NCBI GenBank assembly: GCA_029261895.1
Contig: JAJDAK010000011.1
Span: 3,424 to 67,423, forward strand
Length of the DNA stretch: 64,000 nt
Reading direction: 5' to 3'
Source of the DNA: Deltaproteobacteria bacterium
GTDB lineage: Bacteria > Myxococcota_A > UBA9160 > SZUA-336
Part shown: in pieces, positions 2,637 through 17,395 of the stretch
How the letters are laid out: each line of letters starts with the position of its first letter
How positions within the stretch are numbered: position 1 is the first letter of the stretch
Program-made: the position numbers and the translations under genes
Notes under the pieces: model-generated
The model's input: only the letters and a program-made list of their open reading frames with translations
What the model was told of the DNA's origin: nothing
The model's database searches: none

Positions 2637-2755
2637 GAGCCAATACCCCCGGCGCCAATTCTCGCAGGATACCCTTTTTCGACGCCAACGGAGTCCCAGC
2701 CGTTGTAGAATATCGTCTGACACACCGTCAGTTTTCTGTGAAGGGAAAGGATCAG

Positions 2756-5700
2756 ATGCCAGCGCGGTACCTCATGGGCTTGGACCTCGGCGGCAGCGGA
2801 GGGCGCTGCCTATTACTGGATCCGGATTCCGGAGAGCAGTTCGTGAGCACGCGCGCCTGGCGCCACGCTCCGGTTCAAGACCAGGGCAATCTCGCTTTCA
2901 ACCTTAACTTTAATGAAATCGATCAAGCCCTTACCAACACCATTGCTGAGGCGCTGGAGCTGGCGGGAGCACAGGCTTCGGACATCGCTGGAATCGCGTG
3001 TACCGGAATGCGCCACGGCATGGTCCTGACCGATCGCGACCTGCAACCCATCTTCGCGGTCCCGACCCGCGATACACGAGCTGCGCTCAGCATCGGCGAA
3101 CTGGTGAACAGCGTCGGACCGCGCTGTTTGGAAGAATGCGGTTCCTGGCCGAACCCGGTTCATCTGGCTACCCGACTGCGCTGGCTCGCAACCACCCAAG
3201 ACGAGCTTTGGCGAGAGGCGAGCTGCGTGCTCGGCATCGGCGAATACTTTGCAGCGCGGCTCAGCGGCGAAGCCGCTGCGGAGCCCTCCCAAGCCAGTGC
3301 CAGCGTGTTGTTGAATCTCGCGAGCCGCGATTGGGCCTGGAACTTAATAGATGACTTGAACTTTCCACGTGAACTCTTTCCAGCAGTTCGTGTTGCAGGA
3401 TCTCCGCTTGGACATGTCACAGACGAGGCCGCCTCGGCGCTTGGATTGACGCCCGGCACGCCGGTGATCATCGGCGCTGGCGATACGCATGCTGCGTTGC
3501 TGGCGGCTGGCGTTGTGGAGCCCGGGCAGATAGGTATCTGTGCCGGTAGCACGGCTCCGCTCATGGGCGTTCTCGAGACGCCGCGCATCGATCCCGACGG
3601 TCGCCTTTGGGTCGAACCCCATATCATTCCTGGACGCTCGGTCGTTGAAAGCAACGCCGGTGGCGTCGGTGAAGCGCTCGAATGGTTCGCCCGCTTGCTC
3701 TTCCGCGATGAGATCTACCCGATGGATCACCTCTTTGCGAACGCCGCCGAAGCCAGGCTTGGATCCCGCGGGGTGCTTTCGACTTTAGGGCCGCAGGTGA
3801 TGGACGGAAAGTCGCTCGCTTTCCCCCTCGGCCGTATTCACCTCACACCGTTTTCACTGATCGACACCGCAGCCGATCGCGCGGATCTCGCGCGTGGTGT
3901 GGTGGAAGGGATCGCCTATGGGTTGCGCGCTAACGCCGAACAAATCATCGCGCATATGGGGACGGTCCCCGAGGAAATCGTAATTACCGGTGGACTGGCG
4001 AGGAATACATTCTTCACTCAACTCTTGAGTGATGTATTGAATCGCCCTGTTGCGGTAGCCAAAGGCGAGCAGACCACGGCGCTGGGAGCTGCACTCTCTG
4101 CCGGGGTCGGTGTAGGCGTATTCGAGAATCTCAGCCAGGCCAGCGCAGTCACGCGTGCTGTGGAACGCCGACATGAACCCCATCCCGATCACGCCGCCGC
4201 CTACGAGTCGATCTACCAAGGTTGGTCGCGTGTTCGTAATGCGGCGATGCCCGGGGATGCCGAGGCGGCCGGCTTGACGATCCAGACTTCGCTGCGTGAA
4301 GCACCAGCGGTCCAATCCTCAGCCGCGCTGCGTTTTCGTCCGAAGATTCTGGTGACCGCTGAATTGGATGCGTTGAGCCTCGAGCGGCTGCAGAATTTGG
4401 GTGACGTCGAGTACGCGAGTTTTCGCGACGCCATGCGGTTGCTCACGGGACCCGACTTGGTCGAAGCCCTCAAAGGCGTACACATCTTCATCACGGAAGT
4501 GGATGTTGTTGACGCTGCGGTGCTCGAACAAGCGACAGACCTCCGGGCGATCGCCATCTGTCGCAGCGACGCGGTAAACGTGGACCTCGAAGCCTGTACC
4601 GCCGTTGGCATCCCCGCGTTGCACGCACCCGGTCGCAATGCCGACGCGGTGGCGGATCTCACACTCACCTACATGCTCACACTGGCGCGCAAATGGGTCG
4701 ATGCCACGCAGTTTCTGCAGCGTCCCGGCGGCGAGGCCGGCGACATGGCGCGGATGGGTCAGGCGTTTCAGGAACTCCTGGGTCACGAGCTTTGGCAGAA
4801 AACCGTCGGCTTGGTTGGCCTGGGTGCCGTGGGTCGACAGGTCGCGAAACGTCTGCAAGCATTCGGCGCAAAGCTCTTGGTCTTCGATCCATATCTCCCG
4901 TCTCAGGCCGCGCGTGTGCTTGGCGCAGAACCCGTTGATTTAGACGAGCTACTCACGCGCAGTGATTTCGTCAGCCTGCACGCTCCCGTTACTCCCACGA
5001 CTGAAGGGATGATCGGTGGGCCCGAGTTCGGACGCATGAAACAGGGTGCGATGTTGATCAACTCGGCTCGCGCTGCGTTGGTCGACTACGACGCGTTGAT
5101 CACGAGTTTAAAGAGCGGTCACTTGGGTGGCGCCGCGGTGGATGTCTTTCCGATCGAACCGCCCGCGGCCGACGACCCGCTGCTCTCCATACCCAATTTG
5201 ATCGCGACGCCACATATCGGTGGGAACACCGTGGAGGTCGGCGCCCACCAGGGCGAGATTATTACGGACGATCTCACACGCATGCTCCGCGGCGAAGCGC
5301 CGCAGCACGCGTTGAATCCCGCTGCACTCGAGCGGTTCCGTTGGGACGGAAGTCGGGAAACCCTGGACACCGACACCTGGGATGACCTCAAGCGCGCCGC
5401 AGGTCCGACGGTCTCGGGTCCACAGAGGGCACCCGCCGTTGCAGCGGTTGCGGCAAAGCCCGAGACGGATCCAGCCTCGCGCCGCGACGACGCACAGTAC
5501 GTGAACGCGCGAGCCAAGATGCAGCCGCTTCTCGGAGCATTCGTGGCGGATTGTCTGGACGATGATGCGCTCGGCACGTTCGCTAACGGCAAATCCGTCA
5601 TCCTGCATTTCATCTTGAACGATCTCGACTTGGACTTTCAGCTGGGCTTTGCGGGTGACCGTGTCATCGGTGAGCTAGGCGCACCGAATCCAGATCCTGA

Positions 5701-6580
5701 CGTACAGCTAAAAATGAAAGCCGATATTTTCGACGGCATGTTCACGGATCGCGTCAATCCAATGCAGGCTGCGATGAACGGAAAGCTCAGCTTCAGCGGC
5801 GATACCGCGAAAGCGATGACGCTGCAACAGATTCAAGCGGATCTCTCACGAATCTACAGCGCCACACGCGAGAGAGTTGGAGATCCCGGGGATCTCGGCG
5901 CGCTCGAGCCTGCTTCGGCCGCGGTTTCGGTCCCGGAAGGCGGCGAGGGCCAAGCGTTGAAACAGGAATTGGTCGACGTGGTGAACGAACTCTATTCCAC
6001 ACAGTTGATCACGGCGACCGGCGGGAACGTCAGCGCGCGAATTCCGGAAACGGACGAACTCTGGATCACACCCAGCCAACTCTTTAAGGGCGACCTCTCG
6101 CCCGAAATCCTGGTGCGCATCGATATTGAGGGCAAGGCGGTGGGAGACCAAGCCCTCTCGGCGTCGAGCGAACGTATGATGCACTGCGCGATTCTGAAAG
6201 CGAAACCGGAAGCGCAGGCCGTTGTTCACGCGCACGCCCCCCATGCGACCATTCTTGCCAATACCGGCCTCCCCTTCTTACCGATCTCCACTGAAGCGGC
6301 GTTCTTCTCGGAGATCCCACGCATACCGTTCATCATGCCGGGTACGAACGAGCTCGCAGAGGCTATCGCGGAAGCGATCGGTGATGGTTGGGCGGTCTTG
6401 ATGCAAAATCATGGGTTGTTGGTCGCGGGTCGCAGCCTGCGCCGAGCCGCAGACATGGTCGAAATCATTGAACGCACCTGTGAAGTGATTCTGGGTTGCT
6501 ACGCCGTCGGTAAAGAACCGCCCGTGCTACCCGAAGAAACCGTTGCGATCTTGCGAGAGATGGGCGACCTCGTCGCCTAG
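2756..6580 (+). CDS. Four-domain fusion protein: FGGY carbohydrate kinase, D-isomer-specific 2-hydroxyacid dehydrogenase, SCP2 sterol-carrier domain, class II aldolase/adducin domain
   Basis: One continuous frame (ORF track 2738..6580 from a GTG start). The ATG at 2756 follows the AGGA-rich stretch ending at 2751. Kinase: GLDLGGSGG...IGAGDTHAALLAAG...GGLARNTFFTQLLSDVLNRPVAVAKGEQTTALGAALSAG. Dehydrogenase: VGLVGLGAVGRQVAKRLQAFGAKLLVFDPY...NLIATPHIGGNT. SCP2: NPMQAAMNGKLSFSGDTAKAMTLQQI. Aldolase: ATGGNVSAR...SSERMMHCAILKA...VVHAHAPHATILA. Confidence 0.8.
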   Translation: MPARYLMGLDLGGSGGRCLLLDPDSGEQFVSTRAWRHAPVQDQGNLAFNLNFNEIDQALTNTIAEALELAGAQASDIAGIACTGMRHGMVLTDRDLQPIFAVPTRDTRAALSIGELVNSVGPRCLEECGSWPNPVHLATRLRWLATTQDELWREASCVLGIGEYFAARLSGEAAAEPSQASASVLLNLASRDWAWNLIDDLNFPRELFPAVRVAGSPLGHVTDEAASALGLTPGTPVIIGAGDTHAALLAAGVVEPGQIGICAGSTAPLMGVLETPRIDPDGRLWVEPHIIPGRSVVESNAGGVGEALEWFARLLFRDEIYPMDHLFANAAEARLGSRGVLSTLGPQVMDGKSLAFPLGRIHLTPFSLIDTAADRADLARGVVEGIAYGLRANAEQIIAHMGTVPEEIVITGGLARNTFFTQLLSDVLNRPVAVAKGEQTTALGAALSAGVGVGVFENLSQASAVTRAVERRHEPHPDHAAAYESIYQGWSRVRNAAMPGDAEAAGLTIQTSLREAPAVQSSAALRFRPKILVTAELDALSLERLQNLGDVEYASFRDAMRLLTGPDLVEALKGVHIFITEVDVVDAAVLEQATDLRAIAICRSDAVNVDLEACTAVGIPALHAPGRNADAVADLTLTYMLTLARKWVDATQFLQRPGGEAGDMARMGQAFQELLGHELWQKTVGLVGLGAVGRQVAKRLQAFGAKLLVFDPYLPSQAARVLGAEPVDLDELLTRSDFVSLHAPVTPTTEGMIGGPEFGRMKQGAMLINSARAALVDYDALITSLKSGHLGGAAVDVFPIEPPAADDPLLSIPNLIATPHIGGNTVEVGAHQGEIITDDLTRMLRGEAPQHALNPAALERFRWDGSRETLDTDTWDDLKRAAGPTVSGPQRAPAVAAVAAKPETDPASRRDDAQYVNARAKMQPLLGAFVADCLDDDALGTFANGKSVILHFILNDLDLDFQLGFAGDRVIGELGAPNPDPDVQLKMKADIFDGMFTDRVNPMQAAMNGKLSFSGDTAKAMTLQQIQADLSRIYSATRERVGDPGDLGALEPASAAVSVPEGGEGQALKQELVDVVNELYSTQLITATGGNVSARIPETDELWITPSQLFKGDLSPEILVRIDIEGKAVGDQALSASSERMMHCAILKAKPEAQAVVHAHAPHATILANTGLPFLPISTEAAFFSEIPRIPFIMPGTNELAEAIAEAIGDGWAVLMQNHGLLVAGRSLRRAADMVEIIERTCEVILGCYAVGKEPPVLPEETVAILREMGDLVA

Positions 6581-7650
6581 GACTGAACCGTTCGCTTGCC
6601 CAAGAGATTGAGCTTGTAGCGACGTATCGTCTCGGGGGCGATCCGTTGACCATCGGTGCTCTCAAATGCGAGCGCGTCCATCGGGCATTGCACGACGCAA
6701 GCACCACAGCGCACACAACGATCGTCATGAGCCAAAATCGCTTTACGAGGCTCTGATTGTTTTTCGAAGCACGCTTCCGGACAAACCTCCCAACATGAGA
6801 ACACGCCCTGGCAACGATCCCGGTCTAGAGAGATCCGCCACTCGCGCTCCGCAAAATGACTTCCACCTTCAATAGGCGTTGAACCGGAGTAATCGAATGT
6901 CAGTACACCGGACAAAAACCATGTCGAGAGAAATGCAGCAGCCCAGGTGCTCGGACCCCCATGGATACAAAGGACCACGAGTGCAGCGACCGCAGTTGCA
7001 AGTAGCGTGAACAAGGTTCTTCGCGGTTCTGGCAAGCGGTCATAGAACTGAAACATGGTGATCGCAAGGACGACCGCCCAAATGACAATCGGCAAGGCGA
7101 ACTCGGAAAATGCAAACGCCCCAACGCCACCGACTACGATCGCCGTAGGAGTCGCCCAGGCGGCCGCCATTTCCAAGCGTTCACGCGTGCCGAAGCGTAC
7201 GCGCCGCATTGCGTCGTCTTTCTTCGCGCCACGCGCGAGATAGCGCGGAATATCTACTGCATCCACGGGACCGAAACGAACCTTCCAACCACAGCGGCGT
7301 GACACCTCGCGTGCTTCAACGCCCGTCGCCGCCAGTTGAGGCAAGATCGCACGCCGATGGGTGACTCGATCTTCGATGCCCGAAGTTTTGAGCGCACTCA
7401 CGACCTGATGCGTGCTGAAGTGTCCTCCCGCAGCCGCGCACCAGATATTGATGCCCGAACTCGGCGCAACGACCAGCCACGCGTCCATACCTTTGAGGGC
7501 TCGGATCACAGACCGAACCGTGAAATCGTAGTTCCCGGTCACGAGTACCGGACTGCTCGAATCCGGTTGCCCGATCGCTCGCAGGCCCGGTTCGGTCGAC
7601 CAGGGAAAAAGACGAAAGCCGGTTTGCATGACGTTGCGCAAGAGACTCAT
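6577..7650 (-). CDS. HgcA-like corrinoid-binding membrane protein fused to an HgcB-like 2x[4Fe-4S] ferredoxin (fused HgcAB-like)
   Basis: ORF track 6577..7893. The ATG at 7650 forms an ATGA overlap with the stop of the upstream methyltransferase. The N-terminal domain has the HgcA-family signature VLVTGNYDFTVRSVIRALKGMDAWLVVAPSSGINIWCAAAGGHF and the downstream DRVTHRRAILPQLAATGVEAREV motif. About 4 predicted TM helices follow. The C-terminus has CQGVFSCWEVCPEAC and CVRCGACVVQCP. Confidence 0.75.
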   Translation of the reverse strand: MSLLRNVMQTGFRLFPWSTEPGLRAIGQPDSSSPVLVTGNYDFTVRSVIRALKGMDAWLVVAPSSGINIWCAAAGGHFSTHQVVSALKTSGIEDRVTHRRAILPQLAATGVEAREVSRRCGWKVRFGPVDAVDIPRYLARGAKKDDAMRRVRFGTRERLEMAAAWATPTAIVVGGVGAFAFSEFALPIVIWAVVLAITMFQFYDRLPEPRRTLFTLLATAVAALVVLCIHGGPSTWAAAFLSTWFLSGVLTFDYSGSTPIEGGSHFAEREWRISLDRDRCQGVFSCWEVCPEACFEKQSEPRKAILAHDDRCVRCGACVVQCPMDALAFESTDGQRIAPETIRRYKLNLLGKRTVQS

Positions 7651-8300
7651 GGGTTTGGCTGCGCGACAATAACGACGAGCGTTCCAAACAAAAACCGCTG
7701 CTCGTGATGGATACGAAACCCGGCGCCCGTAATTTCTTCGACAAGATTGGGAATCGGTCGTGACACTGAACCGACCCAGAACCAACCCAACAAGGCTTGC
7801 GGAACACGCATGAAGGCAAATGTAATGCGTGCAAACACGCCAGATGGGCGCACTTCGTCGGCGATAACCAACAATCCACCGGCGCGAATACATTCGCGCG
7901 CGGACTTGAGCACGTGGTGACGCTCTAGACGCGAGAGTTCAGAGAATGCAAAACTTGCAACGACGGCATCGAACTCTCCGGGTTCAAACTGATCGACCTC
8001 GGCAGCGGTTTGTTCGAGCCAGCGTAAGTTTTGGGCATCCACGAGACGTGTTTTTGCAATCGCAAGCATCTCCGGATTCTGGTCCAGCGCCACCACACGG
8101 GCACCGCGAGCCACCAGCTTCGCCGTAAGCGATCCCGTACCACAACCGATTTCGAGTACGTGAGTTCCGTGCACCGATACCGCAGCGTCTGCGACCGCAC
8201 GATGTATCCGTCTTGCCCGTCCCAACGTTAGTATGTTCATACCCACGTCGTAGCGTTCGGGCGTCGACTCGAGCCATCGCATCAGCGCAAGCGAACTCAT
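7647..8300 (-). CDS. Class I SAM-dependent methyltransferase (Methyltransf_11/25-type)
   Basis: 217 aa. Motif I is VLEIGCGTGSLTAKLVARGARVVALD. The gene has 4-nt ATGA overlaps with the upstream TetR (8297..8300) and the downstream HgcAB-like gene (7647..7650). Confidence 0.8.
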   Translation of the reverse strand: MSSLALMRWLESTPERYDVGMNILTLGRARRIHRAVADAAVSVHGTHVLEIGCGTGSLTAKLVARGARVVALDQNPEMLAIAKTRLVDAQNLRWLEQTAAEVDQFEPGEFDAVVASFAFSELSRLERHHVLKSARECIRAGGLLVIADEVRPSGVFARITFAFMRVPQALLGWFWVGSVSRPIPNLVEEITGAGFRIHHEQRFLFGTLVVIVAQPNP

Positions 8301-8878
8301 GCTGCTAGCACCTTGCGAACACTCATCACTAAGGCTGTTTCAAGTCCGCCGATATCATCAAACGCTCGCCGATCCGCCAGGTACTGCAGAAGCAGACCAT
8401 CCATCGACGCGATCAAAAACGACGCCGTCCAAACTGAATCGAGGTTCGAATCAATCGATCCATCGCGCTGGCCTTCAGCGATCACCTCGGCGAGCAATTG
8501 ACGAATACGCCGAAAAAAATTTCGAAAGTCCAATGCTCGCAACGTGTGCAGGTCGAGCGTGATCGATCCGTTCCGCGACCAGGCTTCAAAGACGTGGCTC
8601 ATTCCAGTCATCAACTGCTCGATACGGCGCGTCGATTCGCCTTTCGACTCCAAGACGCCCCGGAATAGCTTTTCTTCGCTCTCGAGGAGATCACGCGCGA
8701 TGTCGCGAACCAACGACGACTTGTCGGGGTAGTAGTGGTACAGACTTGATCGACCCATACCGGCCGCATCCGCCACCGCGGCAAGCCCGGTGCCTTTGAT
8801 ACCCCGACGTCCAAACACACGCCGAGCGGCAGTTCGAATCTCGGCTTTCTGCGCCACACCATCGACGATCTTTGGCAT
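8297..8878 (-). CDS. TetR/AcrR-family transcriptional regulator
   Basis: 193 aa. The N-terminal helix-turn-helix is RRVFGRRGIKGTGLAAVADAAGMGRSSLYHYYPDK. It is the first gene of the TetR-MTase-HgcAB-like operon. Confidence 0.8.
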   Translation of the reverse strand: MPKIVDGVAQKAEIRTAARRVFGRRGIKGTGLAAVADAAGMGRSSLYHYYPDKSSLVRDIARDLLESEEKLFRGVLESKGESTRRIEQLMTGMSHVFEAWSRNGSITLDLHTLRALDFRNFFRRIRQLLAEVIAEGQRDGSIDSNLDSVWTASFLIASMDGLLLQYLADRRAFDDIGGLETALVMSVRKVLAA

Positions 8879-8890
8879 TGCTTCCTCGTT

Positions 8891-8908
8891 TTCGACAGTA
8901 TTGTCGAA
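8891..8908. promoter_or_regulatory. Inverted repeat TTCGACA-GTAT-TGTCGAA, a candidate TetR operator, 13 bp upstream of the TetR start
   Basis: 7-bp arms read directly from the sequence (ttcgacagtattgtcgaa). It lies in the 91-bp gap between the amidohydrolase stop (8970) and the TetR start (8878). Confidence 0.35.
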
Positions 8909-8969
8909 ATAAACCCAACGGTCAATCGAAACATCTCAGTGATTCGAATCGAGGGATCGCCCGGGCGGG

Positions 8970-9788
8970 CTATGAATTGCGCGAAAAGAAGAGCCGCTTC
9001 GCGTTCATGTAGAGATACTTGTCGAGCACGCCTTCGCGCAGATCGAGCCCAGCGGCTTCTTCAAGACAGCGCACCATCGAGAGTGCTGGGTGGTCGGAAG
9101 CAAAGATCACTTTGTCCTGGCCGCGCGTATTCATGTAGTGGATGAGCTCGGGCGGAAAATACTTTGGCGCGTACGCACTGGTCTTCAGATACAGGTTCTT
9201 ATATTTCAGCATCAACCGAATGGCTTCCTGCCACCAGGGGTCGGTGCCATGCGCCATCACCAGCTTCAACTCCGGAAAATGAAGGCATACTTTGTCGAGG
9301 TGCATCGGGTGCTGACATTCGCCGGGCACAGGCGGCCCAGGAATCCCCGTGTTGATCGTCACCGGTAAATCGAGCTCGATGCACTTGGCATAGACGGGAT
9401 AGTAAATCGGATCGCACCCCGGTCGATCGATCCAGAACGGCGTGACCCGCGCGAGAACGACCGGATAATTTTCCGCGAAACTCTCGAGCGCCCGAATGAC
9501 TTTCATCCCGCGGCGAGGATCCACCTGCGCGCCCAGCGAAAAGCGATCGGGATGGGCCTTGGGAAATGCGAGCACGTGGTCCGATGGCCGCTCGGGCTCC
9601 GTGGTGACGATCGCGCGTTCCACTCCCAAGCGATCCATTTCCTCCACGACTTCCTCGACTGAGTAATCGCGAAAAAAATCTTCGCCGCCATTGAACAGGT
9701 CTTCCGCCACGCGCACCAGGTAGTCGGGGCGGCCCAACTCGCTCATGTTGACGTTGATCCAGGTATCGATCGCCCGGAGATCAGTCAT
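8970..9788 (-). CDS. Amidohydrolase-2 family metal-dependent hydrolase (ACMSD/LigJ-like)
   Basis: 272 aa with PF04909-like features (HGTDPWW..., a C-terminal FASDHP motif). It overlaps the Rieske oxygenase gene by 8 nt. Confidence 0.7.
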   Translation of the reverse strand: MTDLRAIDTWINVNMSELGRPDYLVRVAEDLFNGGEDFFRDYSVEEVVEEMDRLGVERAIVTTEPERPSDHVLAFPKAHPDRFSLGAQVDPRRGMKVIRALESFAENYPVVLARVTPFWIDRPGCDPIYYPVYAKCIELDLPVTINTGIPGPPVPGECQHPMHLDKVCLHFPELKLVMAHGTDPWWQEAIRLMLKYKNLYLKTSAYAPKYFPPELIHYMNTRGQDKVIFASDHPALSMVRCLEEAAGLDLREGVLDKYLYMNAKRLFFSRNS

Positions 9789-10752
9789 CGCCGCGTAGAA
9801 TTGGCACGCTGAAAAACTGCTTCATCCAGCGTCGGTAGGTACCAATCTGGCCGTCTCCATCGCAGAGCAGTGGTCGGCTGTAGTAGTGCTTGTTCTCCCA
9901 AATGACGATGTCCTCCGCCATTTGTTTTTCCAAGTCTTTAACCAGCGCCGCTCCCACGCCCCGAGTGGCCGAAACCCCGTCGACCTCACGTACCGCGTAC
10001 GCGAAACTCACGTCAGTTGTGTCTTCATCAATCGGCGTTGAGGTATTGACCATCAAAGTTTCCGCGATTCCCGAAACATCAACGGTTTGCAACCCCGGCC
10101 CATAGTCCGTCGTATCGATCCCACCAGTGATCTCACCCTGCGGCGTACCCATCTTCATACGCGATCGGCAACGCAGAATATGACCGTCGATGTCGACTTC
10201 GGTCTCGGGAGACGTATGCGTGCCGTGCACGTAGCGGAAATGAATTTGATCGACAGCGTTCTCGTTCATATCCAGCCAACGACTCTTCACCGTCCAGCGT
10301 CGGATTTGATACGGCGACCATTCCGAAGACCCACATTGCCATAGCTCGGGCACCTCATACGAAGGCGGCTCGTCCTGATCGTGATACCAAGTAAAGAGCA
10401 AGCCGTTACGTTCGACCAAAAGCCATGCACGCATCTTCGCCGTACGAGGAATTTTCTTCGCATACGGAATCTCGATACAGCGCCCTTCTCCATCCCAGAG
10501 CCATGCGTGGAACGGACAGCGAATTCCCTTGCCATCTACCGTACCTCCAAAACCGAGATGCGCGCCCAGGTGAGGACAGTGCGCGTCGAGCAGATGTGCC
10601 TCGCCTTCTTCATCACGAAAGAGCACCAGATGCTGACCGAAGTAGTGCAACGCTTTGACCTCGCCGGCCGCGATGTCATCCGCATACGCGATGCGAAACC
10701 AACCGTTCGCATAGGCGGGAAACGGAAAACGTTGAGAAATCTGACGATCCAT
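9781..10752 (-). CDS. Rieske [2Fe-2S] non-heme iron oxygenase alpha subunit (phthalate-dioxygenase/KshA/VanA-like family)
   Basis: 323 aa. Rieske motif CPHLGAHL...CPFHAW, followed by a catalytic domain. Confidence 0.8.
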   Translation of the reverse strand: MDRQISQRFPFPAYANGWFRIAYADDIAAGEVKALHYFGQHLVLFRDEEGEAHLLDAHCPHLGAHLGFGGTVDGKGIRCPFHAWLWDGEGRCIEIPYAKKIPRTAKMRAWLLVERNGLLFTWYHDQDEPPSYEVPELWQCGSSEWSPYQIRRWTVKSRWLDMNENAVDQIHFRYVHGTHTSPETEVDIDGHILRCRSRMKMGTPQGEITGGIDTTDYGPGLQTVDVSGIAETLMVNTSTPIDEDTTDVSFAYAVREVDGVSATRGVGAALVKDLEKQMAEDIVIWENKHYYSRPLLCDGDGQIGTYRRWMKQFFSVPILRGDD

Positions 10753-10803
10753 CAGATACGACGATATCTGTGGTGCGTCCGCAACGCAAGCGCTTTTCCG
10801 TGG

Positions 10804-11985
10804 TTAGGAATCGAAAAGTACCGGGACGCGATCGGGACCCCGAAACATGAGACCCACCACCCCGCATTGCTGGTCCAGATCGAGCCGAAGGCCAGGCAAG
10901 CGTTCGAAGAGCGCGCGCATGCCGATCTCCGCCTCCAGATACGCCAGGCGAGATCCCGCGCAATAGTGCTTCCCGAAGCCAAACGCGATGTGATCTTTGG
11001 CATCGCGATGGATGTCGAAACGAGCCGCGTCTTTGAAGTGTGATTCGTCGCGGTTCGCGGAACCGATCCCTACCAAGACTTGAGAACCGGCTGGAATCAT
11101 CGTGCCGGCAATCTCCACGTCCTCCAATGCCCGACGGGTCACGAGCTGCACCGGAGACTCCCAGCGCAGTCCCTCATCCAACGCAGGCCGCAGCATGTCG
11201 GGTACCTTGAGAACTTCATCGAACTGCGCAGGATCCCGGAGCAAACCGAGAAACGTGGAACCCATCAGATGATACGTCGTCTCCGCACCCGCGAGCACGA
11301 GCAGTCGGATGAAGCTCACGATCTCCTCTTCCGTCATCCGCTCACCGTCGATCTCCGCGTGGACCAGCCGTGTAATCAAGTCATCGGTCGGCTGCTGTTT
11401 TCGTTTTTCGACGACGGGACGCAGGTAGTCGGCCATACGTTGGGACGCTTCAAGACCACGATTCGCATCCACGGTAACGTGCGTGAGCGAAATCGCCCAG
11501 CGATGAAATTCGGCAACGTCGTCCACGGGCAAACCAAGAAGTTCGATAAATACTTTCAACGGATACACGAACGTAAACGCTTCCACCAAATCCGCCATGC
11601 CGTCATCAGCGAACTGATCAATCAGCTCATGCGCGATCGACTCAACGAGTTTTGGGAAGTCGCCGCGCAGCGCTCTCGGGGCTAACGCGGGTGTCACGAT
11701 ATTTCGATGCTTGAGATGCTCTTCACCATCCATCGCCACGATGGTGCGCCCCATCACCAGACTGATCCCTACGTCATTCGAGCTATTGGAAAACACCCGA
11801 TCGTCACGAAGCGCACGCGCTACATCGTCGTAGCGCGTGATGAGATACCCGTCGCCACCAATGGTTTGTATTTTCAGCACGGGGTGATCGCGTCGAAGCC
11901 GGGTATATGCCGAAAAAGGATCGCGCACCGCATCGAGTTCGCTGCCACCAAATACATCGATAAATGTCGGCGCGGCATCCGTCAT
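10804..11985 (-). CDS. Cytochrome P450 monooxygenase
   Basis: 393 aa. Heme-binding loop FGFGKHYCAGSRLA. ATGA overlap with the upstream TetR. Confidence 0.85.
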   Translation of the reverse strand: MTDAAPTFIDVFGGSELDAVRDPFSAYTRLRRDHPVLKIQTIGGDGYLITRYDDVARALRDDRVFSNSSNDVGISLVMGRTIVAMDGEEHLKHRNIVTPALAPRALRGDFPKLVESIAHELIDQFADDGMADLVEAFTFVYPLKVFIELLGLPVDDVAEFHRWAISLTHVTVDANRGLEASQRMADYLRPVVEKRKQQPTDDLITRLVHAEIDGERMTEEEIVSFIRLLVLAGAETTYHLMGSTFLGLLRDPAQFDEVLKVPDMLRPALDEGLRWESPVQLVTRRALEDVEIAGTMIPAGSQVLVGIGSANRDESHFKDAARFDIHRDAKDHIAFGFGKHYCAGSRLAYLEAEIGMRALFERLPGLRLDLDQQCGVVGLMFRGPDRVPVLFDS

Positions 11986-12584
11986 GACAATGTCCTTCGC
12001 CCTTGCTGCGGTGCTTGAGCGATCAGCCGATAGACGGTGCCTAAGCCTTCGGCTGGATCGTCGGCTTCAGGACTGGGAAAAATCAACATCGAGAGCAACG
12101 CGCGGGTGATCCAATCCACCAACTGGCCGACACTCACTTGGCCACTCACCACGAGGCTCGTGTCCTTCAAGAGCGGGCCCATCAAACCCAGCAACCCATC
12201 GCGAATCAACGGAAACTCTCCGCGCAGCCACTCAAACATCAGCGGCATGTCGGTCTCGCGCAGGCGATTAAGAACAGGGTGCGCACGCATGTAGCGCGCG
12301 GTTTCGTCGAGCACATACTGAATCGCGTCCTCGCTCTCATCAATCGTCTCGAGTAGCTCGATAATCCGAGCGCGGTAGCGCTCGACTTCGTGCTCTGTCA
12401 GTGACGCGTAGACGGCGTCGCGGGTCGGAAAGTAACGGTACAGCGTGCCGCGTGAGACTCCCGCCGCGGCACTGATTTCACCCATGCTGAGCTTGCTCGC
12501 ACCATGGGTCGCGATAGCGCGCAAGGCCCCGGCGAGAATACGTATTCGGGTCTTTGGGCGTAGCTCAGGACTGCTGGATTCCAT
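11982..12584 (-). CDS. TetR-family transcriptional regulator
   Basis: 200 aa. N-terminal helix-turn-helix is ILAGALRAIATHGASKLSMGEISAAAGVSRGTLYRYF. A short ATTTG-T-CAAAT palindrome lies in the 36-bp upstream gap. Confidence 0.8.
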   Translation of the reverse strand: MESSSPELRPKTRIRILAGALRAIATHGASKLSMGEISAAAGVSRGTLYRYFPTRDAVYASLTEHEVERYRARIIELLETIDESEDAIQYVLDETARYMRAHPVLNRLRETDMPLMFEWLRGEFPLIRDGLLGLMGPLLKDTSLVVSGQVSVGQLVDWITRALLSMLIFPSPEADDPAEGLGTVYRLIAQAPQQGRRTLS

Positions 12585-17134: not shown

Positions 17135-17395
17135 TAACTGCGTATGCTTTGCATGGCGGTGTTTTGACTCAAGTTCCACCAACGTCATCCCGATGTAGGG
17201 CATGACCAATACGACACATAACAGTGTCCGCCATCAGGTGACAGAACTCCTTAAAATGGTTCTGTCCCACGAAATGGCAAACCCGTCGTAATACGGGGAC
17301 GCAAAGCCAGTGCCCTACCGCGGTAGTCTTCGAATATCGCGCGGGTCGAACGGTTGGCGAATGGGTCAGATGATGAACTGCATTGAAGGAGATCT

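Follow-up and report, generated by a model that had tools for sequence, protein, structure and literature searches.

What the proteins of the HgcA family do for the cells that carry them has long been puzzling: the methylation of mercury seems to be a side activity, and those paralogues in which HgcA-like and HgcB-like parts are fused into a single polypeptide do not methylate mercury. The question is raised again by a locus in a 64,000-nucleotide stretch of DNA (the window in what follows) from Deltaproteobacteria bacterium (GTDB lineage Myxococcota_A; UBA9160; SZUA-336; assembly GCA_029261895.1, contig JAJDAK010000011.1, positions 3,424 to 67,423 of the forward strand). Here the list of open reading frames (ORFs) and a reading of the reverse strand give three consecutive minus-strand ORFs over 6577-8878, namely tetR, cpaM and hgcAB-like, which encode a TetR-family regulator, a methyltransferase dependent on S-adenosylmethionine (SAM) and an HgcAB-like fusion protein. 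The identity of these genes and their arrangement as an operon are close to certain. As judged from sequence, the three probably constitute an autoregulated operon, the last two genes of which represent a two-gene module widespread in bacteria and archaea.

Conservation of the gene pair

Relatives of the fusion protein were surveyed in one genome per GTDB species, which gave at least 586 loci; the best 80 were analysed, with phmmer searches over all of their ORFs. CpaM is encoded upstream and on the same strand in 71 of the 80 genome loci, or 71 of the 73 that are informative. The nine loci lacking an upstream CpaM comprise five with less than 250 bp of upstream sequence, two that encode true HgcA and two of the fusion type. 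Both true HgcA loci (L076 and L077) have the motif WCAAGKG, no fused ferredoxin and no CpaM, and one of the five loci at contig ends (L080) is likewise a true HgcA. As to the junction between cpaM and hgcAB-like, the 71 loci comprise 35 with a 4-bp overlap, five with a 1-bp overlap, eight with another short overlap and 13 with a gap of 0-30 bp, while in three the genes form a fused ORF. Carriers are found in Myxococcota, Chloroflexota, Acidobacteriota, Gemmatimonadota, Binatia, Heimdallarchaeota, Bathyarchaeia, Thermoplasmata, and Desulfurococcales, the nearest relatives of the present locus being in Myxococcota-type metagenome-assembled genomes.

Five natural fusions join the two genes in a single ORF, with CpaM immediately N-terminal of the corrinoid domain; three of them come from genome loci (L074, L078, and L079) and two from metagenome contigs (L089 and L090). 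Those at L074:146-1927 (593 aa) and L089:53-1966 (637 aa) are complete polypeptides with CpaM, corrinoid, transmembrane, and ferredoxin parts, whereas at L078:1386-3089, L079:5281-6897, and L090:205-1764 the fused ORF ends after the transmembrane domain, representing either real short forms or frameshifted assemblies. The association was also followed in the reverse direction, by a metagenome scan in which the GCGTG pattern proved unspecific and returned mostly generic methyltransferases. Five full-length CpaM matches were obtained, and all four that have room downstream carry an hgcAB-like gene; none of 75 generic methyltransferases, serving as a negative control, has such a partner. The coupling of cpaM and hgcAB-like is real and ancient. 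An earlier note on this DNA had proposed co-occurrence of the two genes elsewhere as a test of the pairing, and the pairing passes it across bacterial and archaeal phyla.

The arrangement is occasionally interrupted. On reading the sequences, a second methyltransferase-like gene lies between cpaM and hgcAB-like in a Methanofastidiosia locus (L017:3644-6979) and a third follows the pair, and at L054 what seems to be a PIN/VapC-like gene is inserted between the two.

As a discovery the pairing is not new: it is already represented in NCBIfam by the models NF043040 (corrinoid protein-associated methyltransferase) and NF043039 (HgcAB-like fusion protein). The gene order and adjacency seen here are those that the family name suggests, there is no structural difference, and the locus simply belongs. 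CpaM scores 253 bits against NF043040 (cutoff 180), a model labelled hypothetical equivalog, with residues 3-214 covering positions 1-215 of 216, and the fusion protein scores 399 bits against NF043039 (cutoff 285). Since both cutoffs are passed and the Prokaryotic Genome Annotation Pipeline gives the two names to homologues (P0043, P0138, P0168, and P0200), cpaM and hgcAB-like constitute a catalogued family pair. No paper on CpaM or a corrinoid protein-associated methyltransferase was found in the searchable literature. New from the present analysis are the quantified conservation of the junction, the five CpaM fusions, the conserved putative TetR operators, and the simple markers that set the fused paralogue apart from true HgcA.

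Organization of the operon

The earlier note had described three minus-strand genes joined by ATGA overlaps, and direct reading confirmed every part of this description (Table 1). Its view of the three as one tightly coupled unit is also upheld, both ATGA junctions being present and the overlaps recurrent in relatives. The 4-bp ATGA overlap is the commonest operon junction in bacteria and is ordinary by itself; here it goes beyond chance because the junction is conserved across related loci. The junction of tetR and cpaM is a 4-bp overlap in most tetR-bearing loci (including L081 and L084), and Candidatus Binatus and another genome have the whole tetR-cpaM-hgcAB-like cassette, in which each of the two junctions is a 4-bp overlap.

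The longest mechanical ORF for hgcAB-like begins at an ATG at 7893 and would encode 438 aa. The start at 7650 is favoured by an alignment of 14 homologues and by the NCBIfam profile, in which residues 5-327 correspond to positions 2-349 of 350. The operon ends with hgcAB-like, since a convergent plus-strand ORF of 1280 aa terminates at 6580. The frequency of terminator-like matches within the operon does not exceed that in shuffled sequence. Around the operon no Rfam family reaches its gathering score, and a cobalamin riboswitch was accordingly not detected, and the composition of the region (GC 55-59%) gives no sign of recent transfer.

Table 1. Positions of the operon, its predicted control sites, and the protein domains within the 64-kb window.
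Feature	Position	Strand	Description
Promoter-like site	8897..8925	-	-35 TTGACC, 17-nt spacer, -10 AATACT; consensus match, 9/12
Putative TetR operator	8890..8909		TTTCGACA-N4-TGTCGAAA; perfect palindrome, overlaps -10 hexamer
tetR	8297..8878	-	193 aa; TetR-family regulator
tetR/cpaM ATGA overlap	8297..8300	-	tetR TGA and cpaM ATG; 4 bp; read directly
cpaM	7647..8300	-	217 aa; class I SAM methyltransferase
cpaM/hgcAB-like ATGA overlap	7647..7650	-	cpaM TGA and hgcAB-like ATG; 4 bp; read directly
hgcAB-like	6577..7650	-	357 aa; HgcAB-like fusion protein
Corrinoid (B12)-binding domain	7231..7608	-	Residues ~15-140; cap helix GINIWCAAAGGH
Membrane domain	6898..7188	-	Four predicted transmembrane helices: residues 155-180, 182-205, 210-228, 233-251
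HgcB-like ferredoxin domain	6646..6837	-	Residues ~272-335; Pfam Fer4; eight invariant Cys

The TetR regulator and its predicted operator

The regulator matches Pfam TetR_N (50.7 bits, cutoff 24) and TetR_C_6 (33.1 bits, cutoff 27), indicating an N-terminal helix-turn-helix and a BetI-type C-terminal ligand domain. None of the NCBIfam equivalogs reaches its cutoff, the best being ScbR (41.6 bits against 150). A promoter-like site sits in the 91-bp gap between the end of the upstream amidohydrolase gene at 8970 and the tetR ATG at 8878, and the putative operator that overlaps its -10 hexamer consists of two 8-nt arms, 100% complementary, around a 4-nt spacer. The operator core TCGACAN4TGTCGA has a single exact match within the window. 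It recurs once each, just upstream of tetR, in 11 loci (L001, L002, L004, L007-L009, and L081-L085), where a second, imperfect copy sometimes follows it. Autoregulation of tetR is supported because the conserved predicted palindrome covers the -10 of the tetR promoter; the arrangement as a whole is what TetR operons under autoregulation usually show.

A second clade of these regulators has, in the corresponding place upstream of tetR, another conserved palindrome, TGGGTGAC-N2-3-GTCACCCA or ATGGGT…ACCCAT (L037, L038, L049, L052, and L055; also L046, L051, and L072). The operator appears to have co-evolved with its regulator. About 20 loci encode a TetR homologue immediately upstream of cpaM: the nine closest ones and some ten that are more distant, an archaeon (L049) among them. 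The dedicated TetR postulated by the earlier note does look dedicated, given the conserved synteny and the palindrome conserved upstream of tetR. All-against-all clustering of the ORFs of the 80 loci found no conserved neighbour other than TetR, only antisense shadow ORFs, and in loci lacking TetR the genes upstream of cpaM are heterogeneous by eye (IclR-like, anti-sigma-like, and thioredoxin-like membrane proteins).

Domain architecture of the HgcAB-like fusion protein

The fusion protein, for which 892 homologues were found at E<=1e-10, matches Pfam CdhD (PF03599, the corrinoid domain of the corrinoid iron-sulfur protein, CFeSP) with 60.7 bits, along with Fer4 families. In CFeSP, the large subunit has a B12 domain (PDB 2h9a/4c1n) that aligns, with E 4e-11, to the corrinoid domain of the fusion protein. 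Within it Cys71 (TGC codon 7438-7440) is invariant in 15 aligned sequences, as part of GIN(V/I)WCAA, and is the predicted lower axial ligand of cobalt. An AlphaFold2 model of the protein has a predicted local distance difference test score (pLDDT) of 67.5 overall; the corrinoid domain reaches 80-92 and the membrane part 75-89. The assignment of the four transmembrane helices draws on the secondary structure of this model, hydropathy, and conservation. Because their number is even, the corrinoid and ferredoxin domains would lie on the same side of the membrane; a conserved loop within the membrane domain, YDRLPxPRR, and the conserved DYxGSTPIEGGSHF right after it (residues ~253-266) may also be cytoplasmic.

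The invariant ferredoxin-domain cysteines in the alignment are C280, C286, C290, C294, C312, C315, C318, and C322. The second Fe-S motif is a canonical CxxCxxCxxxCP, while the first (6769-6813, minus strand; residues 280-294) reads C-x5-C-x3-CP-x2-C, the second canonical cysteine being replaced (Val283) and an extra one following CP. This spacing, which recalls the [3Fe-4S] site of 7Fe ferredoxins, is found in 27 of the 80 loci, and two canonical motifs in 13 distant loci; weak FdxA matches were seen in the NCBIfam search. There is no cysteine beyond residue 322, hence the HgcB-type C-terminal pair is absent. In one fusion-type locus, L067, both motifs are canonical CxxCxxCxxxCP, and the protein ends in an additional Cys-rich tail (…CSCPTC…NSCCGSTDC) that resembles the HgcB pair and may be the mark of a different subclade.

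The methyltransferase CpaM

Beyond NF043040, CpaM matches the generic methyltransferase families Methyltransf_25/11/12 and Ubie_methyltran of Pfam, and carries motif I as VLEIGCGTG (residues 48-56). Its AlphaFold2 model (pLDDT 88.9) has a Rossmann methyltransferase fold, for which the best PDB match is Coq5 (4obw; TM-score 0.77, 15% identity). Further neighbours are the uncharacterised MM_2633, CysG/BelI, a phosphatidylethanolamine N-methyltransferase, and UbiG, and identities over the whole set, Coq5 included, are 15-24%. Among 70 homologues, elements specific to CpaM are conserved: an N-terminal LESxPxRYDxG, ADE past the central strands, and RxP...T..TQ..T on a long helix at 155-176. The sole invariant cysteine is C53, inside the SAM motif GCGTG.

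Two better-known assignments were tried and rejected. The best ArsM-type models give 40-48 bits against cutoffs of 510-575, and CpaM is not ArsM-like in that its only invariant cysteine lies in the SAM motif. As a UbiE/MenG/Coq5 enzyme it scores 66.1 bits with TIGR01934 (cutoff 158), so the Coq5 fold is a resemblance only. The quinone C-methyltransferases Coq5 and UbiE supply both the closest solved fold and the best sequence families outside CpaM; CpaM differs from them in having its own LESxPxRYDxG and helix 155-176 motif, and in being paired in the genome with a corrinoid protein instead of with genes of the quinone pathway.

Possible functions of the pair

In the mechanism that we propose, TetR would remain on its operator until released by a small organic ligand. 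The three proteins would then be made from one transcript, with translational coupling keeping the output of CpaM and that of the corrinoid protein roughly balanced. The ferredoxin domain would reduce the Cys-ligated cobalamin to Co(I), CpaM would dock on the cytoplasmic corrinoid domain (or be fused to it) and pass the SAM methyl group on to Co(I), and the resulting methyl-Co(III) would hand the methyl to an acceptor other than mercury at the cytoplasmic face of the membrane. The direction of methyl flow, the docking of CpaM, and the ligand of TetR are what we infer. There is precedent for the relay in true HgcAB: in the purified protein, cobalamin with Co-S(Cys) ligation is methylated by SAM directly, and not by methyl-tetrahydrofolate (Zheng 2024, PMC11588087), and the corresponding Cys71 is invariant here. 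The same result supersedes the view, held by the earlier note, that HgcA receives its methyl group from folate or CFeSP pathways. That note had also stated that known hgcAB loci are without a SAM methyltransferase; this holds for L076 and L077, which lack CpaM, but arsM, itself a SAM methyltransferase gene, has been seen near true hgcAB (PMC7438021).

The logic would be that of CFeSP and its methyltransferase MeTr (AcsCD/AcsE) in the Wood-Ljungdahl pathway, where a dedicated methyltransferase loads a corrinoid carrier, with a homologous B12 domain (PDB 2h9a/4c1n/4djd), that is kept active by an Fe-S centre. The loader there is a TIM-barrel methyl-folate enzyme, as opposed to the Rossmann-fold SAM enzyme proposed here, and the carrier here differs in being membrane-anchored and Cys-ligated, with no genes for acetyl-CoA synthase (ACS) or carbon monoxide dehydrogenase (CODH) nearby. 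SAM likewise methylates a protein-bound Co(I) corrinoid in the reactivation of MetH and in cobalamin-dependent radical SAM enzymes such as TsrM, a comparison drawn in part in the literature (PMC11588087); MetH and TsrM bind SAM in the same polypeptide, through an activation or radical-SAM domain, whereas here a separate class I methyltransferase, occasionally fused, would do so. Taken as a whole, as a compromise between the identity of the operon and the methyl relay, this explanation has about an even chance of being right. The relay itself, from SAM through CpaM to Co(I), falls somewhat short of even. In its strongest form the proposal is a rather doubtful one: with CpaM, a SAM:corrinoid-protein methyltransferase of class I (Rossmann-fold) would be seen for the first time, forming with the fusion protein a widespread membrane-bound methyl-transfer machine of aerobes and anaerobes that passes the methyl of Cys-ligated methylcobalamin to a non-mercury acceptor (such as a metalloid, an unreactive organic compound or a lipid) and is induced in some lineages by a small molecule sensed by TetR.

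Several other explanations have to be set beside this one. That the adjacency is meaningless, the overlaps reflecting the usual compaction of unrelated genes, would accord with the frequency of 4-bp overlaps in bacteria, yet conservation in 71 of 73 loci over phyla, the five independent gene fusions, and the 0 of 75 generic methyltransferases with a partner effectively refute it, and we give it next to no credence. It is very improbable that the locus is a fused hgcA and hgcB orthologue making methylmercury. The fusion protein has the domain order and cap-helix cysteine of HgcA/HgcB, a system that in Pseudodesulfovibrio mercurii ND132 combines a corrinoid domain capped by Cys with a membrane domain and a ferredoxin partner of the 2x[4Fe-4S] type, and it gives partial matches to the corresponding models. 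These matches stay below cutoff, however, for both HgcA (NF040863, 177.3 bits against 275, over residues 17-162 only) and HgcB (NF040864, 52.8 bits against 99), and HgcA and HgcB are two polypeptides, not one. HgcA presumably has five predicted transmembrane helices, compared with four in the fusion protein. The cap helix NIWCAAAGGH falls outside the accepted NVWCA(A/S/G)GK, NIWCA(A/G)GK, and NVWCSAGK (PMC10087281). Across the survey, fusion-type proteins have WCAAxGG(H/L) (WCAAxGGH in this one), in place of the WCAAGK of HgcA, and are paired with a class I methyltransferase as an obligate partner; the true HgcA loci have WCAAGKG (NVWCAAGKG in L076, L077, and L080) and no CpaM. The ferredoxin motif is CVRCGAC instead of C(M/I)EC(G/S)(A/G)C (PMC7536318), and the missing C-terminal pair corresponds to HgcB Cys94/95, which with Cys73 is among the residues crucial for mercury methylation (PMC11588087). 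The two organisms with fused hgcAB tested to date, Pyrococcus furiosus and Methanococcoides methylutens, make no methylmercury (PMC5893877; PMC10087281), and the fused clade forms a separate branch of the HgcA tree that includes an aerobe (10.1101/2022.11.21.517362). By its motifs and scores, then, the locus is a paralogue of the mercury-methylation system and not that system itself. Equally improbable is that the protein serves anaerobic C1 metabolism (Wood-Ljungdahl-like) as a methyl carrier of the CFeSP type, dependent on folate, the methyltransferase being incidental. The homology to the CFeSP large subunit on which it would build is limited to the B12 domain of ~125 residues, and the AcsC/CdhE model reaches 84 bits against a cutoff of 306; MeTr, ACS, and CODH genes are not conserved alongside in the 80 loci, the adjacent genes of the window are O2-dependent (P450 and Rieske oxygenase), and the partner enzyme uses SAM, not folate.

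More serious, if still unlikely, is the explanation that CpaM is a Coq5/UbiE-like methyltransferase acting directly on a lipophilic compound, the corrinoid/Fe-S protein carrying out another step with no relay between them. That step might be Co(I)-dependent reductive dehalogenation, demethylation or some other reduction, of the same compound or of its precursor, and TetR would sense the compound. The fold neighbours of CpaM (Coq5, the C-methyltransferases CysG/BelI, phosphatidylethanolamine N-methyltransferase, and UbiG) and its best non-CpaM sequence families (UbiE/MenG) point in this direction, as does the BetI-type ligand domain of TetR, regulators of this kind typically sensing small organic molecules. 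According to a 2026 preprint, heterologously expressed HgcAB dechlorinates CCl4 (10.64898/2026.04.26.720869), and HgcAB takes the methyl group of SAM without a loader (PMC11588087). On the other side, the UbiE/MenG model is far under its cutoff, the recurrent fusion of CpaM to the corrinoid protein and their near-obligate coupling are more typical of the subunits of one enzyme than of enzymes that follow each other in a pathway, no further pathway gene is conserved near the pair in the 80 loci, and the cap-helix cysteine, which tunes methyl transfer in HgcA, is invariant.

A number of observations weigh against the operon and relay as we have described them. To our knowledge, no class I methyltransferase methylates a corrinoid protein, and the nearest folds of CpaM belong to small-molecule and lipid methyltransferases. 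The literature search found no biochemical data for CpaM or any HgcAB-like fusion. Two fusion-type loci (L021:940-2103 and L067:5956-7161), and only these, lack CpaM despite having upstream sequence. TetR was recovered in 24 loci in the clustering, and being carried by only about a quarter of loci it is clade-specific and lies outside the core module. No terminator-like site was found between the operon and the upstream gene cluster, so that read-through from the cluster is possible. The ferredoxin domain is poorly modelled (pLDDT <50). Finally, because purified HgcAB accepts the methyl group of SAM with no helper (PMC11588087), a loader such as CpaM is perhaps unnecessary in the paralogue.

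Genomic surroundings

Directly upstream of the operon, at 8970-12584 on the minus strand, is another tightly packed cluster, in which genes overlap at 9781-9788 and 11982-11985; it encodes an amidohydrolase_2 protein, a KshA-like Rieske oxygenase, a cytochrome P450, and a further TetR. The O2-dependent enzymes of this cluster suggest an aerobic or facultative host, whereas the B12/Fe-S family is usually discussed in anaerobes. On the other side, the 1280-aa ORF (2738-6580, plus strand) joins FGGY sugar-kinase, D-2-hydroxyacid dehydrogenase, SCP2, and class II aldolase parts in an unusual four-enzyme fusion. It overlaps hgcAB-like tail to tail, both TAG stops lying in the palindromic CTAG at 6577-6580. 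The only Rfam match in the window is a c-di-GMP-I riboswitch aptamer at 17266-17361 on the plus strand (51.9 bits, gathering score 35), and no tRNA genes were found in the 64 kb.

Upstream of the cassette on the Candidatus Binatus contig (L081:547-4347) are genes for a heavy-metal P-type ATPase (YHS/HMBD), a second UbiE-like methyltransferase, and an HTH_17 protein. This metal context is a single case, the other loci being without one.

Significance

Against the background of a family whose physiological role has been so elusive, the fused branch stands out in that a dedicated SAM methyltransferase is almost invariably coupled to it and in some cases forms one protein with it. The pair lies, in some clades, under a regulator of the small-molecule type with a recognisable predicted operator, and the inducer of TetR is likely to be the substrate or a related compound. 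There is also a practical consequence, in that counts of hgcA in metagenomes should exclude the fused paralogue, for which the WCAAxGGH cap helix and an adjacent cpaM are simple markers. The interest of the locus is moderate: the window adds an instance and not a kind, while the function of the family is a real question that has now become testable. If true, CpaM as a corrinoid methyltransferase would point to the native function of the HgcA family and would explain the use of SAM by its mercury-methylating branch.

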